Shown here: positions 7,361 to 24,078 of the stretch, one piece after another
Layout of the letters: the number at the start of each line of letters is the position of its first letter
Numbering within the stretch: position 1 is the first letter of the stretch
NCBI RefSeq assembly: GCF_900460215.1
Contig: NZ_UHIA01000003.1
Span: forward strand, 494,760 to 526,759
Direction of reading: 5' to 3'
Origin: Suttonella indologenes
GTDB lineage: Bacteria > Pseudomonadota > Gammaproteobacteria > Cardiobacteriales > Cardiobacteriaceae
Length of the DNA stretch: 32,000 bases
Translations under genes and position numbers: made by a program
The notes under the pieces: model-generated
Seen by the model: the letters and a program-made list of their open reading frames with translations, nothing else
Databases searched by the model: none
Told to the model about the DNA's origin: nothing

Positions 7361-7701
7361 TTTAACGGGCGATATAAGCGGAGCAGTGGGTGCTGGGGTA
7401 ACTTCGCTATCTGCTCCGATTATTGCCCAAGTTGCCGATAATTCAGGCAGCCTGAAACCTGTTGTGGATACCGTTAGCGGTTTAGCGATTGGCTACACCA
7501 CAGGCGGCACTGCTGGTGCTTTTACTGGGGCTAATGCGGATTGGAATAATCGGCAGTTGCACCCTGATGAACGGCGTTGGATTAAACAAAATGCAGAAAA
7601 ATTTGCCGAACAACAAGGTATTAGCACCGAAGAAGCAACGGAACGCTTGGCACAACAAGCGGCACGGCAAACGGACGCTTTATGGTTCTTGGCTTTATCA
7701 G
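7361..7701 (+). pseudogene. orphan cdiA fragment (pretoxin segment only), cut off by a REP element
   Basis: Nearly identical to cdiA 4424-4763 (LTGDISGAVGAGVTSLSAP...ANADWNNRQLHPDERRW...ALWFLALS). Homology stops exactly at the REP copy starting at 7701. No toxin or immunity gene follows. Confidence 0.85.
7445..7456 (+). repeat. DNA uptake sequence
   Basis: Exact 12-mer in the orphan fragment; a copy of 4507-4518. Confidence 0.8.
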
Positions 7702-7890
7702 CAAGGTAGGGTGGGCAACTTGTTGCCCACGCGTTTAATCAATTTCAGGCAGCCTGAAATCAGTTTATTGGGTTTGTCAATAAACTATTTTATGTGGCGA
7801 AAATTTATCCAAGTTGGTTAAGGAAAACAACAATGCACTTAAAACCCAAATTAAAACGCGTGGGCAACAAGTTGCCCACCCTACGCTTGC
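7701..7890. repeat. NIME/MITE-like unit: two inverted 33-34-bp REP copies (7701-7733 and 7857-7890) flanking a DUS and a small hairpin
   Basis: Left end is gcaaggtagggtgggcaacttgttgcccacgcg. Right end is cgcgtgggcaacaagttgcccaccctacgcttgc, its reverse complement apart from one extra base. Each copy contains the 9-bp stem GTGGGCAAC/GTTGCCCAC. An internal DUS lies at 7747-7758 and the hairpin agtttattg/caataaact at about 7762-7786. Confidence 0.8.
7747..7758 (+). repeat. DNA uptake sequence inside the REP-flanked unit
   Basis: Exact 12-mer within tttcaggcagcctgaaa (7-bp self-complementary stem). Confidence 0.8.
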
Positions 7891-7926
7891 TTTGCCAACT
7901 ACCGTCAATGGTTAGGGAGCGACTAC

Positions 7927-10900
7927 ATGTTGGGTAGTCTTAAACTGGACCCCAACAACCTACATAAACGTTTGGGTGATGGTTATTACGAGCAACGCTT
8001 AATCAATGAACAAATCACAGAGCTAACAGGACATCGTCGTTTAGACGGTTATCAAAACGACGAAGAACAATTCAAATCCCTGATGGATAACAGTGTCACT
8101 GCTGCTCAAACAATGAACCTCACGGTTGGCATTGCATTAAGTGCCGAGCAAGTTGCACAGCTGACCAGCGACATCGTTTGGTTGGTACACAAAGAAGTTA
8201 AGCTCCCTGATGGCAGTACGCAAACCGTATTGGTGCCACAGGTTTATGTGCGTGTGAAAAATGGCGACATAGACGGTAAAGGTGCATTGCTCTCGGGCAA
8301 CAATGCACAAATAGACGTTGCAGGCAACCTGAAAAACTCAGGCACGATTGCAGGGCGCAATGCGCTTATCATCAACACCGATACACTGGACAATATCGCT
8401 GGGCATGTTCATGCACAAAAAGCAGCCATTTCTGCCACACAAGACATCAACAATATTGGCGGTAACCTTTCTGCTGAACAGGCATTATGGTTAAAAGCAG
8501 GCAACAACATCAACAGCCAAAGCACCACCGCCGGCAGTCAAAATACACAAGGCAGCAGCACCCACCTAGACCGAATAGCAGGTATTTACATCACAGGCAC
8601 AGAAAAAGGTGTTTTAGCAGCACAAGCTGGTAAGGACATCAACATCATTGCCAGTCAAATCAGCAATCAATCAGAGCAAGGACAAACCCAGCTGCAAGCA
8701 GGGCGCAACATCAATCTGGATACCGTACAAACCGGCAAACATCAAGAAACCCATTTTGATGCTGATAACCATGTTATTCGCGGTTCAACTAACGAAATTG
8801 GTAGCAATATTCAAACGCAAGGTGATGTTACCCTGTTAGCAGGCAACAACCTCAATGCCAAAGCTGCCCAAGTCAGCAGCGCAAACGGTACACTCGCTGT
8901 GTCTGCCAAAAATGACATCAACATCAGCGCAGGCATCAATACGACCCATGTTGATGATGCGTCCAAACACAAAGGCAGAAGTGGCGGTGGCAATAAATTG
9001 GTTATTACCGACAAAGCCCAGAGCCACAACGAAACCGCTCAAAGCAGCACTTTTGACGGCAAACAAGTTGTATTGCAGGCAGGAAACGACGCCAACATAA
9101 AGGGCAGCAATGTCATTTCTGACAGTGGCACCCATATCCAAGCAGGCAATCATGTTCACATTGGCACAACCCTAACCCATAATCAAAGCGAAACCTATCA
9201 TCAAACCAAAAAATCAGGATTGATGAGTGCAGGTATCGGCTTCACGATTGGCAGCAAGACAAACACACAAGAAAACCAATCCCAAAGCACCGAACATACA
9301 GGTAGTACCGTAGGCAGCATCAAAGGCGATACCGCCATTATGGCAGGTAAACACTATCAACAAATCGGCAGTACCGTTTCCAGCCCGGAAGGCAACAACA
9401 CCATCCATGCCCAAAGCATAGACATTCAAGCAGCACACAACCAATTAAACAGCAATACCACCCAAACCTATGAACAAAAAGGCTTAACGGTGGCATTCAG
9501 TTCGCCCGTTACCGATTTGGCACAACAAGCTATTGCCGTCGCACAAAGCAGCAAACAAGTCGGACAAAGCAAAAATGGTCGTGTCAATGCCATGGCAGCT
9601 GCCAATGCAGGCTGGCAAGCCTATCAAACAGGTAAGAGTGCACAAAACTTAGCCAACGGGACAACCAATGCCAACCAAGTCAGCATCTCCATTACCTATG
9701 GCGAGCAAAAAAACCAACAAACCACCCAAATTCAAGCAAGCCAAGCCCAAGCAAGTCAAATTCAAGCAGGCGGTAAAACCACATTAATCGCCGCAGGTGC
9801 AGCAGAACAATCCAACATCAACATAACAGGTTCAGATGTAGCGGGTAAAGCAGGTACCACCCTGATTGCCGATAACAACATCACACTCCAATCCGCCGAA
9901 CAAAGCAGCAGAGAACGCAGCAACAACAAAAGCAGCGGCTGGAATGCAGGTGTCGCCGTATCATTCGGACAAGGAGGCTGGTCATTAGGCATTACCGCAG
10001 GTGGCAATGTCGGCAAAGGCTACGGCAATGGCGACAGCGTAACACACCACCATAGCCATATTGGCGACAAAGGCAGCCAAACCATTATCCAAAGCGGTGG
10101 CGATACCACACTAAAAGGCGCGCAAGTCATCGGCAAAGGCGTACAAGTTCATGCCAAAAACCTAAGTATTCAAAGCGTACAAGATAGCGAAACCTATCAA
10201 AGCAAACAACAAAACGCCAGTGCCCAAGTGACCGTAGGCTACGGCGCCAGTGCTGGCGGCAGTTATGGCAAAAGCAAAATCCGAGCCGATCATGCTTCGG
10301 TAACCGAGCAAAGCGGTATTTATGCAGGAGAAGACGGCTATCAAATCAACATCGCCCAACACACCGACCTCAAAGGCGGCATTGTTACCAGTACCCAAAG
10401 CGCAGAAAACAAAGGCAAAAATCGATTCAGCACCGGCACACTCGCCCACAGCGACATCAAAAACCACAGCCAATACCAAGGCAAAAGTTTCGGATTGGGT
10501 GCCAGCGTTGCCGTAAGCGGCAAAACATTGGGGCAAGGAGAACAAAACACCCAAAGCAGCCTGAAAACCGTAGCCGATAAAAACGGCACCGGTTCGTCTG
10601 TCGGTTACGGCAAAGACAGCGACAACCAAAGCAGTGTTACCCGCAGCGGCATCAACACCCGAAACATTCACATTACCGATGAAGCCGAACAAATCCGGCT
10701 GACGGGCAAAACGGCAGAGCAAAGCAAAGTCGATATTTATACCGACACCAATACAGACACCGCCGAACAACTTTCAGGCAGCCTGAAAAACGTCTTTGAT
10801 AAAGACAAAGTGCAAAGCGAGCTGGATTTACAAAGAACAGTCAGCCAAGACTTCAACCGCAATGTTCAGGCAGCCAATACCGCAATCAACCGCCACCTTG

Positions 10901-22861: not shown

Positions 22862-23860
22862 TCACACAGTTTGGGCTTGATAAACGGTTTGATGTTTAAG
22901 TACACCAAAACAAATGTGTACCAATCGGCGCATACTCGCCCCAATCGCTTGCATTTTTGTTTTACCACGCGCCAACAAGCGCTCATAATGGGCTTGAATA
23001 TCAGGATTGTAACGCTTGGCAACAATGGCTGGCATATACAGTAAAGCCCGCATTCTGCTGTTGCCACGTTTGCTCAACATGACTTTGCCTTTGAATTGAC
23101 CCGATTGTTTTTCTTTGGGAATTAAGCCCCAAAAGACTGCCATTTGTGCTGCGCCGGTAAATTGTCGGCTGCGGTACAATACCGCCATATCTAAGGCAGT
23201 TGCTTTACCCACAGCAGGAATACTTTGCAATAGCTTAATATCGTTTTTTAAATCAGGGTGTTGGTCAATGTGATTATCCACATCGTTTTGCAAGTCGGCA
23301 ATATTTTGTTCCAAAGCCGCAATCATTTGGTTCAATGACAACAACACTTTCTCGGGTGTATTGGCGATTTGGGCTGAATGTAAGCGATTATTTTCACGTT
23401 GTAAATCGGCTTTCAAAGCGTCCAAACGAGCCAATTTGGCTTTAAGCTGGCGAATGTGGGTCGCTTCAGGCTGCCACAGTTCAATATCTATGGTGGGCGT
23501 TGCACCGTATAAGGCAATCACTTTGCTGTCGCTTTTGTCAGTTTTGTGCACCGTACCCAGAGATTTGGCAAAATCAAGGATGTACTTGGGATTAACGATG
23601 CTGACTTTGATGCCTTTATCGTGTAAAAAATATGCCAACAACTCGTGATAAACGCCTGTTGCTTCCATAATCACATGAACGGTAGATAAATCAGTGGTGA
23701 TGTTTTTCTCAATCCATTCAATGAATTTCAGGCAGCCATCGGGATTGTTGTCCAAAATTTTGCTGCGGATGCTGCGTTTGCGGATGTCTTTAAGGTAGGC
23801 AATGTCCCATTTTTGTTGAGAAACATCAACGCCTATGATATGTTGAATGCTGTCCACCAT
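22862..23860 (-). CDS. IS110-family transposase/recombinase (DEDD N-terminal domain plus IS116/IS110/IS902 C-terminal domain)
   Basis: IIGVDVSQQKWDIA..., VIMEATGVYHELLAYFL..KGIKVSIVNP, KTDKSDSKVIA, and C-terminal LQSIPAVGKATALDM...KGKVMLSKRGNSRMRALLYMPA are family hallmarks. An aaggaaag RBS is present. Confidence 0.9.
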   Translation of the reverse strand: MVDSIQHIIGVDVSQQKWDIAYLKDIRKRSIRSKILDNNPDGCLKFIEWIEKNITTDLSTVHVIMEATGVYHELLAYFLHDKGIKVSIVNPKYILDFAKSLGTVHKTDKSDSKVIALYGATPTIDIELWQPEATHIRQLKAKLARLDALKADLQRENNRLHSAQIANTPEKVLLSLNQMIAALEQNIADLQNDVDNHIDQHPDLKNDIKLLQSIPAVGKATALDMAVLYRSRQFTGAAQMAVFWGLIPKEKQSGQFKGKVMLSKRGNSRMRALLYMPAIVAKRYNPDIQAHYERLLARGKTKMQAIGASMRRLVHICFGVLKHQTVYQAQTV

Positions 23861-24045
23861 GGTGTCTTTCCTTGTTCATGCAGTGTCTGCGAGCCAAATC
23901 GCGCACTTGGATACTATTCAGATTAAACTGATGGGAAACAGAGCAGGTTCATCTACGTTACAGCGTCATTGCGCTTAGGTTGGACTCAATTTCCTGCTCT
24001 GTTTGGTTTTTGTGTGCATAATACGTTTTTATCCACACATTTGGA
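23861..24045 (-). ncRNA. candidate IS110 bridge (guide) RNA in the 5' non-coding end
   Basis: The position matches IS110-group elements, whose non-coding end upstream of the recombinase gene encodes a structured RNA. A 12-bp stem aaacagagcagg (23936-23947) / cctgctctgttt (23993-24004) encloses a 45-nt loop with an inner agcg/cgct helix. Structure and expression are unverified. Confidence 0.3.
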
Positions 24046-24051
24046 AAGATA

Positions 24052-24078
24052 CAAGGATGGGCAACTCGTTGCTCACGC
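24052..24078. repeat. degenerate REP copy
   Basis: caaggatgggcaactcgttgctcacgc. The next ~90 nt are homologous to 17406-17470, including a decayed DUS (tcagactgcctgaa). Confidence 0.6.

Follow-up and report, generated by a model that had tools for sequence, protein, structure and literature searches.

What are the short palindromes found at several joints of a cdiA/tpsA toxin array in Suttonella indologenes (Cardiobacteriaceae), and did they take part in truncating and stacking its orphan cassettes? We addressed this question in a stretch of 32,000 nucleotides of contig NZ_UHIA01000003.1 (positions 494,760 to 526,759; hereafter the window, numbered from its first base). Our explanation has four parts, namely that the repeat is a repetitive extragenic palindrome (REP), that the array carrying it was imported, that REP ends are joints in it, and that a REP-associated tyrosine transposase (RAYT, also called TnpA-REP) supplied the chemistry of these joints; as a whole, we give it a probability of about 60%. 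The in vivo effect of RAYTs on genomes is an open question, their cleavage and strand transfer having been shown in vitro (PMC3333891, PMC8266576). This locus, with a C|T signature (the bar marks the break) at eight of nine natural joints, is therefore a test case for whether RAYTs remodel genes or only spread REPs, and offers a mechanistic lead on how orphan cdiA/tpsA cassettes are truncated and stacked.

A REP element and its cognate transposase

A search of the 32-kb window for the core GTAGGGTGGGCAACNNGTTGCCCAC, allowing up to 3 mismatches, retrieved matches at 7706 (+), 7860 (-), 12973 (+), 17247 (+, with 3 mismatches), 17379 (+), 17501 (-) and 22202/22207 (both strands), and 0 matches across 100 dinucleotide-preserving shuffles (chance expectation 0). 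All nine copies listed by the first-pass annotation, in both orientations, are present where none is expected by chance. It had described them as single 33-bp units: their palindromic nature stands, but the unit is 35 nt long, the copy at 22197 consists of two overlapping REPs, and the one at 24052 represents only the right half of a REP that an insertion sequence (IS) has split. This 1230-bp IS110-family element had been missed, as had an orphan REP head at 22780-22790.

The 35-nt unit reads A-GCAAG(C)-GTAG-G-GTGGGCAAC-TT-GTTGCCCAC-GCG, with a 9-bp stem and a 2-nt loop, and all intact copies share GTAG-G-GTGGGCAAC-NN-GTTGCCCAC, the loop being variable; no GTAG-headed perfect hairpin occurs in the window beyond the repeat sites. 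Folded as single-stranded DNA (ssDNA), the canonical unit has a predicted energy of -10.1 kcal/mol and the stem variant of -10.7 kcal/mol. A Kingella-type DNA uptake sequence (DUS), AGGCAGCCTGAA, lies 13-50 nt downstream of five forward copies, in line with the earlier remark that forward copies are followed by a DUS. The copies form singlets, two inverted doublets (7700-7891, and 17372-17532 with 65-nt arms that are 78% complementary) resembling bacterial interspersed mosaic elements (BIMEs) or REPINs (REP doublets forming hairpins), and one fused palindrome (22196-22237). They are listed here with the element that splits the last of them.

7700..7734, strand +: REP, left arm of doublet 1 (AGCAAG-GTAG-G-hairpin-GCG); a duplicated pretoxin fragment (= cdiA 4423-4763) stops at its outer end
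7735..7856, no strand: spacer of doublet 1, with an inverted pair of Kingella-type DUS at about 7742-7760
7857..7891, strand -: REP, right arm of doublet 1; outer end ...GCTTGC|T, where homology to cdiA from 1218 onward begins
12511..12545, strand +: REP with compensated stem GTGGGTGC-TC-GCACCCAC, flanks kept
12966..13000, strand +: REP singlet, followed by a DUS
17240..17274, strand +: degenerate REP singlet (3 mismatches, stem broken, fold z = -0.8), followed by a DUS and the stub of an extended signal peptide region (ESPR)
17372..17406, strand +: REP, left arm of doublet 2, cutting the ESPR stub to the base
17498..17532, strand -: REP, right arm of doublet 2; homology to cdiA from 1895 onward begins at its outer end
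22196..22237, no strand: perfect 42-nt palindrome of two overlapping REPs (ssDNA fold -24.3 kcal/mol); its left end cuts an immunity-module duplicate, its right end abuts a toxin 3' fragment
22780..22790, strand +: orphan REP head AGCCAGCGTAG, cut directly after GTAG
22820..22823, strand +: GTAG head of the IS-split REP; its AG (22822-22823) represents one of the two CT core copies
22824..24053, strand -: IS110-family (IS621-like) element, 1230 bp, transposase 22862-23860 (NF033542)
24054..24085, strand +: second AG core copy and hairpin of the split REP (GATGGGCAACTCGTTGCTCAC GCAG), the former copy 24052

On the opposite strand, the orphan head at 22780-22790 reads ...AGGC|TACGC, which is the inner C|TAC position cleaved by the E. 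coli TnpA-REP in inverted REPs. A second palindromic repeat (AAGTTGTCATTA...TAATGACAACTT) lies inside the duplicated immunity-gene modules, at 13451-13489, 14229-14267 and 21664-21702.

An exact scan for the 25-nt core in one genome per species listed at least 120 stretches, and the matches listed include about 65 assemblies and multiple core-bearing contigs per assembly. Among the Neisseriaceae, the carriers are a Kingella metagenome-assembled genome (MAG), Alysiella crassa, Bergeriella and rumen MAGs; other carriers are many Betaproteobacteria, some Gammaproteobacteria including a Cardiobacteriaceae MAG, and Phormidium and Planctomycetota MAGs. Such breadth for a single identical REP core (loci L002-L121) is unusual and could reflect horizontal spread of the REP-plus-transposase system (REPtron) or contamination of MAGs.

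In seven of the 8-kb loci the repeat has a small gene as its immediate neighbour, bracketed by inverted REPs in L075 (gene 4636-5181, REPs at 4629+ and 5227-) and in L067 (gene 2418-2951, REPs at 2368+ and 2981-). All five proteins scanned (L075, L067, L005, L089 and L085) passed the Pfam Y1_Tnp model (PF01797), with inverted copies of the identical core flanking their genes. The L075 protein matches PDB 4ER8, ‘TnpArep’, with E = 7e-48 and reaches 195 bits on NCBIfam NF047646 (‘REP-associated tyrosine transposase’; cutoff 80), so that the RAYT gene which the first-pass annotation had suggested looking for does exist in other genomes (L075, L157, L161). A GTAG head at the hairpin foot, inverted doublets and a flanked RAYT gene are hallmarks of REP/BIME-RAYT systems (PMC3333891, PMC8266576, PMC3733652), and the doublets seen here recur as units in L037, L135, L013 and L128. 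With its GTAG tetranucleotide and perfect 9-bp-stem hairpin, the repeat is very probably a REP, the DNA substrate of a RAYT.

The compensated stem at 12511-12545, already reported by the first-pass annotation, is one case of a general pattern, since many loci carry compensated variants (CAGC/GCTG, CAAT/ATTG, GTGTG/CACAC, TGC/GCA) in which GTAGG-GTGGG...CCCAC is retained. They include GTGTGCAAC/GTTGCACAC in L135 and L157, GGGCAAT/ATTGCCC in L105 and L161, and GGGCAGC/GCTGCCC in L019, L024 and L085, and this covariation supports the earlier suggestion that the hairpin is under selection.

The repeat had also been likened to neisserial intergenic mosaic elements (NIMEs). Only the REP half of that comparison holds, as we are dealing with a further member of the known REP/RAYT kind, a GTAG hairpin that flanks RAYT genes: neither dRS3 (ATTCCCN8GGGAAT, on either strand) nor the Correia terminus TATAG(C/T)GGATTAA occurs in the window, and dRS3 is also absent from L128-L134. 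Elements of 159-192 bp with terminal inverted repeats, present in several genomes and in a Neisseria-like setting, might nevertheless be read as miniature inverted-repeat transposable elements moved by a DDE transposase, or as NIME/dRS3-type elements used by a phage integrase. We judge this exceedingly improbable given that no target-site duplication was seen at any REP copy or doublet and that the would-be terminal repeats are the same RAYT-flanking hairpins. Integron attC or Xer/dif sites were set aside by reasoning, no tyrosine recombinase being found among the larger open reading frames scanned and the 2-nt loop being unfit for a 6-8-nt central region.

REP ends as joints in a probably imported array

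Comparison of the window with itself and between strains revealed homology breaks at REP ends, as expected if the repeats are rearrangement breakpoints, which is what the first-pass annotation had proposed. Within the window, the breakpoints are 7701, 7889/90, 17373, 17531, 22196 and 22237, and the duplicated segments are the following.

cdiA 1218-3708, copied at 7889-10379: the copy begins where the 7857-7891 REP ends
cdiA 1895-3805, copied at 17531-19441: the copy begins where the 17498-17532 REP ends
cdiA 4423-4763, copied at 7361-7701: ends where the 7700 REP begins
12965-13099, copied at 17239-17373: ESPR stub cut by the 17372 REP
21175-21266, copied at 22105-22196: immunity-module duplicate cut by the palindrome

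These pairs bear out the base-exact abutments described earlier at 7889 and 17531, as well as the ends of the pretoxin fragment at 7701 and of the ESPR stub at 17373; likewise, the toxin 3' fragment to the right of 22237 matches a full-length gene of L128 from its first base. Between strains, L135 carries doublet 1 at another junction, its right end being joined to the counterpart of window position 11670, and has a variant and a canonical REP ~312 bp apart that in the window (12966..13000) are fused within their shared head AGCAAGCGTAGGGTGGG, a repeat-bounded indel of the sort the first-pass annotation had suggested looking for. The homology of L122-L124 with the window stops at 22785, inside the orphan REP head. 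In L037 doublet 1 cuts an IS110 gene at codon 272, and in L157 a REP cuts a copy of a RAYT gene (1-52 duplicates 508-559, joint ...GAAAAAT|AGCAAGC), so that the enzyme's own gene carries the same kind of REP joint. These breakpoints inside the window, together with the differences between strains, make it well supported that REP ends are physical joints at which fragments of cdiA/tpsA appear to have been truncated and grafted.

The repeats might instead be passive 3'-end hairpins of imported cassettes, serving as terminators or mRNA stabilisers and lying at junctions because cassettes end there. The singlets at 12511, 12966 and 17240 do follow immunity genes and precede a DUS pair, like ordinary 3' ends in L013 and L161, and three copies look terminator-like in a simple scan. 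However, terminator-like sites are not enriched (23 versus 18 +/- 4.4 in shuffles), the copies occur in both orientations, each side of the doublets abuts, to the base, a coding fragment truncated at its 5' or 3' end, one and the same doublet occupies different junctions in two strains, and elsewhere REPs cut IS110 and RAYT genes, all of which makes a purely passive role improbable.

The cdiA sites joined to REP ends (1173-1220 and 1850-1896) are preceded by CCCAC(G/C), resembling the REP 3' arm CCCACCCTAC; this likeness could be due to chance or to a pseudo-site effect in target choice.

The subtype found in the window points to a source outside the host. An AGCAAGC head with a DUS 13-50 nt downstream is common to copies from Alysiella and ruminant Neisseriaceae MAGs and is not found in those of other taxa, and a metagenome scan for head plus core returned 13 stretches only. 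One locus (L157; GC content 0.39, Kingella-type DUS) encodes a 179-aa RAYT (188.6 bits on NF047646) flanked by AGCAAGC-type REPs, including the GTGTGCAAC variant; a close homologue (L161) occupies a conserved chromosomal site upstream of miaA and ffh, and its 20.5 kb contain 14 DUS and 7 REPs, 6 of the latter lying between called genes. In this lineage, a likely donor, the repeat is an ordinary dispersed intergenic REP, and it is in low-GC Neisseriaceae rich in DUS that the window subtype occurs in such a dispersed, intergenic form. The idea that it is special to cassette arrays finds no support, given these 7 copies in ordinary chromosome and the breadth of carriers described above.

In the Suttonella host, copies were seen in the array only, without the high-copy intergenic dispersal met in L161. 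As the first-pass annotation had stated, none occurs at 1-7699 or 24086-32000 of the window; moreover, on a sister-strain contig (ERZ1023288 NODE_4, 212,678 bp) every exact head-plus-core match falls at 153,047-178,080, which is the array, and the flanks of strain loci L122-L127 have no REP at up to 4 mismatches. Their about 13-15 kb of flanking chromosome contain 0 DUS, and the density in Alysiella and rumen Neisseriaceae loci exceeds 1 per kb. Doublets in the Cardiobacteriaceae MAG lack both the AGCAAGC head and the DUS. Doublet 1 (7700-7891) has a 99.5% identical copy in a yak-rumen Neisseriaceae MAG (L037), and doublet 2, alone, a 95.5% identical one in Alysiella crassa (L013). In this host the repeat is thus a foreign signature confined to the toxin array, and, since the adjoining chromosome has neither DUS nor REP, it is likely that the array DNA, together with its repeats, has been imported or assembled from, or has passed through, DUS-bearing Neisseriaceae donors.

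Part of the array has travelled further. Window segment 14646-19400, with a REP singlet, the ESPR stub and doublet 2, is 95% identical to L128-L134, NCBI assemblies whose identical immunity protein bears the name N. meningitidis, and doublet 2 lies at the same junction there (L128 10872/10994), so that this junction is older than the spread of the island. The similarity in gene content points to a toxin island exchanged between families: cdiA, orphans, the hlyC-like gene and cdiB (window 14646-19400 and 24078-26481) are 82-95% identical in the meningococcus-named assemblies. Their 20-kb loci have a GC content of 0.43, with matches to the meningococcal uptake sequence only at duplicated positions in the cdiA-homologous region, and in L131 the two arms of REP doublet 2 are separated by an IS30-type (rve) transposase gene (LR134526.1, 11044-12009). 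An island common to Suttonella and meningococcus-named assemblies thus still bears the uptake sequence and the REP of a third lineage, and the REP-plus-DUS composite may help cassettes to cross families (Neisseriaceae, Cardiobacteriaceae) by transformation.

What made the joints

For nine joints, uninterrupted partner sequence was available and the intact target could be read. The REP strand always ends in ...GCTTGC with T as the next base, and the intact target has C|T at the break in eight cases, namely CACGC|TTTG, CCACC|TAGA, CCACC|TGAT, AAGCC|TGTG, TTTGC|TATT, GGGC|TTTAC, TCAAC|TTAC and ACGC|TATT. The chance of eight out of nine is 2e-10 by CT dinucleotide frequency, or 2.5e-5 counting C only. 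TnpA-REP cleaves ssDNA at C|T 5' and 3' of the REP, over more than 400 nt and with a requirement for GTAG, and carries out strand transfer (PMC3333891, PMC8266576). It is this match between the targets and the published cleavage site that leads us to favour RAYT chemistry.

The mechanism we envisage would start with a RAYT binding the folded REP on single-stranded DNA. The enzyme would then cut at C|T both at the outer border of the repeat (...CTACGCTTGC|T) and at an ectopic site in a nearby gene, and rejoining of the strands would leave an intact REP fused to a gene fragment without target duplication. As no RAYT turned up in the window or, for Suttonella, among the best 120 homologues of either RAYT query, this step would have occurred in a donor genome, or by means of an unseen host copy. 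Some indels, such as the ~312-bp case, would have arisen instead by recombination or slippage between two REP heads. Judging from the junction footprints, RAYT cleavage and rejoining at C|T may be the source of the joints between REPs and gene fragments, an attribution that we hold with somewhat less than even confidence. The repeat as the tool of the rearrangements, the alternative raised by the first-pass annotation, may likewise be read from these footprints.

Several observations weigh against this reading or limit it. One joint, at 22196, is T|T. Published maps of RAYT cleavage concern enzymes from E. coli, Stenotrophomonas and Marinomonas rather than the present one (PMC3333891, PMC8266576). 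The joints show 1-5 nt of microhomology, and host illegitimate recombination gives the same. The window contains no RAYT gene, and none from Suttonella is named among the best 120 homologues of each of two RAYT queries. Confinement of the repeat to the array is read from about 15 kb of flank and from one 212-kb contig searched for exact matches to a 30-nt pattern. A simple insertion with its empty site was encountered for none of the REPs or doublets. Finally, the claim that the repeat marks the cassette junctions applies to several joints but not to all, as the junctions at 5875-6321, 7361, 13311-14586 and 20725-22100 have no REP.

Host microhomology joining at hairpin bases is accordingly a serious rival, in which the REPs are real and the joints were made without RAYT catalysis, either by RecA-dependent or slippage recombination of earlier REPs or by breakage at the base of a hairpin or cruciform followed by microhomology rejoining. 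In Salmonella, tandem duplications are known to be joined at REPs. Here, the crossover of the ~312-bp indel between L135 and the window falls inside the 17-nt head common to two direct REPs, the doublets and the 42-nt palindrome (-24.3 kcal/mol) are strong hairpin formers, and both the microhomology, present at all joints, and the failure of the homologue searches to bring up a host RAYT fit in. However, every break follows GCTTGC and so uses one fixed base of the repeat, where microhomology joining should vary in register, and eight of nine intact targets have exactly C|T. Recombination between two copies would in addition require earlier REP insertions in cdiA at 1218, 1895, 4763 and 11670, and palindrome-stimulated deletion usually removes the palindrome, which here is intact. 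On balance, we consider host processes an unlikely source of the joints, though one to be reckoned with.

Returning to RAYT chemistry, a more speculative extension is that REP/REPIN and RAYT constitute a cut-and-graft system for polymorphic toxin loci, generating 5'-truncated cassettes and stubs. We regard this generalization as doubtful; if true, the joints described here would provide the first natural record, in vivo, of strand transfer by a RAYT onto DNA other than a REP.

An RNA-guided IS110 element, the gene setting and known systems

The last REP copy of the window is split by the IS110-family element, whose transposase scores 203 bits on the NCBIfam model ‘IS110 family RNA-guided transposase’. 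On the strand of the element the borders read ...GTTGCCCATC-CT|TGTATC ... GATAGTAT-CT|ACCATT..., which corresponds to insertion at the CT of the REP's CTAC, and the unoccupied site is seen in L129. The known element IS621 also targets a REP (ATCAGGC-CT-AC, with a CT core; PMC11208160). The left end (23861-24053) has a predicted bridge-RNA-like fold with a left target guide (LTG) GUCCAACCU, a right target guide (RTG) GUAG, a left donor guide (LDG) AUAGUAUCC as well as a right donor guide (RDG) ACAAG. A relative that is 64% identical (P0209) occupies at least five different chromosomal sites, always in the inverted arm of a TGC-stem REP doublet (...CACCCACC-CT|TGTATC...ACAGTAT-CT|AC), and a second one, 56% identical and from Conchiformibius (P0224), lies at ...ACCCAAC-CT|. 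The stem subfamily of the 12511..12545 copy is the same one that is targeted by a related IS110 element in L136-L145. The predicted guides of the three elements compare as follows.

P0209: LTG ACCCACCCU; target ACCCACC-CT, 9/9 matched; LDG ACAGUAUCC; own right end ACAGTAT-CT
P0224: LTG ACCCAACCU; target ACCCAAC-CT, 9/9 matched; LDG AUGGUAUCC; own right end ATGGTAT-CT
Window element: LTG GUCCAACCU; target GCCCAYC-CT, 7/9 matched; LDG AUAGUAUCC; own right end ATAGTAT-CT

The guides lie at the same place in the three left ends, with RTG ...GUAG and RDG ACAAG in all of them; across these relatives the LTG covaries with the target and the LDG with the element's own right end, and 8 pairs of the stem around the target loop are compensated when the three sequences are aligned, a pattern that follows the IS621 rules. 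In the window element one of the LTG mismatches is a possible G.U pair and the RTG matches 4/4. A perfect target for its LTG (GTCCAAC-CT-AC) is absent from all loci examined, so the window copy seems to lie at a near-cognate site. On this guide-target covariation, an IS621-like IS110 element guided by a bridge RNA appears to be programmed against the CTAC side of the REP, and it has split one copy; an IS110 guide directed at the repeat, which the first-pass annotation had proposed searching for, has thus been found. It would represent a natural example of such an element programmed against REPs. A different right boundary, at ...GCACAGG-CT, with the orphan head AGCCAGCGTAG as half of the split REP, was ruled out, since L129 has the same 39 nt without the IS and the relatives end in ...GTAT-CT.

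Could such a REP-guided recombinase have made the rearrangements themselves, by REP x REP or REP x IS-end recombination? An IS621-like element does sit inside a REP at the array edge, its relatives target REPs at several chromosomal sites, a strain homology break lies 39 nt from the IS, and bridge recombinases excise or invert DNA between matching sites (PMC11208160). Nevertheless, their crossover is the CT inside C-CT-AC, whereas the joints to gene fragments follow GCTTGC, 6 nt farther outward; the other junctions are free of IS end sequences, and the window LTG mismatches the REP at 2/9 positions and has its perfect target in none of the loci examined. We therefore hold this explanation to be very improbable.

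Gene calls from Pfam scans place the repeats in the following setting.

Left edge to 5875: cdiA/tpsA gene entering the window from the left
6321-7345: RNase/barstar orphan
7927-12063: 5'-truncated cdiA
13057-13311: ESPR stub
14586-16508 and 17441-20725: further orphans
22862-23860, strand -: IS110-family transposase
24183-24641: HlyC-like acyltransferase
24696-26483: ShlB/CdiB
26621-27577: IS256-family transposase
Right end of the window: housekeeping genes

The BCCT, Ogt, glycosyltransferase, CdiB and IS110 proteins of the window carry the name Suttonella indologenes (Cardiobacteriaceae), the host, at NCBI. A Kingella-like Neisseriaceae host, as the DUS might suggest, is contradicted by these names and by flanks free of DUS. 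The HlyC-family gene, directly upstream of cdiB/tpsB and kept in all related loci, hints that CdiA/TpsA or its partner is acylated. The IS256-family transposase beside cdiB is split or displaced in sister strains (L122-L124), and an extra sulfatase gene is found at its position in L122 and L125. A 4.6-kb contig labelled Brevundimonas vesicularis NCTC11166 (L063, NZ_UAQP01000015.1) is 97-98% identical to the Suttonella cdiA, aligning to window 1218-2388, 7783-9059 and 17531-18024, and is probably a contaminant of, or mislabelled in, the public assembly. No Rfam family reached its gathering score in the window, identical-protein look-ups gave nothing on record for the barstar orphan and a single 2.3-kb contig for the IS110 transposase, and a literature search with the repeat as a sequence string returned nothing relevant.

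Among known systems, NIMEs (dRS3/RS) are alike in being clustered short inverted repeats between genes in Neisseria-family DNA, but they differ by dRS3, which is absent here and belongs to a superfamily tagged by CGTC and not GTAG (PMC3733652). The REP/BIME system of E. coli with its TnpA-REP (4ER8) shares the GTAG head at the hairpin foot, the inverted doublets, the C|T junction footprint and a Y1/HUH transposase gene that occurs in single copy between inverted REPs. By contrast, the palindrome described here is perfect (9 bp, 2-nt loop), without the bulge required by the E. coli enzyme (PMC8266576), and has a conserved 7-nt 5' extension (AGCAAGC); its doublet spacers are long (91-122 nt) and contain a DUS pair, and its copies in this host stay within a single, probably imported, locus.

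The Group 3 REPtrons of Stenotrophomonas maltophilia and Marinomonas MWYL1 and the REPIN-RAYT systems of Pseudomonas also have perfect short GTAG-headed palindromes and CT cleavage (PMC8266576); in them, too, the doublet is the probable unit of mobility, and copies are spread between genes throughout a donor-type genome. The present repeat differs from them by its identical 25-nt core in about 65 assemblies of very different taxa among the matches listed. REPIN populations are usually lineage-specific.

The window's IS110 element resembles IS621/ISPpu10-type elements in its CT core, its insertion on the CTAC side of the REP, its left end TGTATC and right end ...GTAT-CT, and its predicted two-loop RNA with LTG/RTG and LDG/RDG; it appears to target another REP family and, in the window copy, a near-cognate site (7/9 for the LTG). 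The locus as a whole resembles the tpsA-tpsC islands and cdiA orphan arrays of N. meningitidis; a paper on tpsC cassettes appeals to uptake sequences, VENN regions and direct repeats, without mention of palindromes or REPs. Locus and islands share, in this order, full-length cdiA/tpsA, 5'-truncated cassettes with immunity genes, the hlyC-like gene and tpsB, with about 95% identity over 4.7 kb that include the REP singlet and doublet 2.

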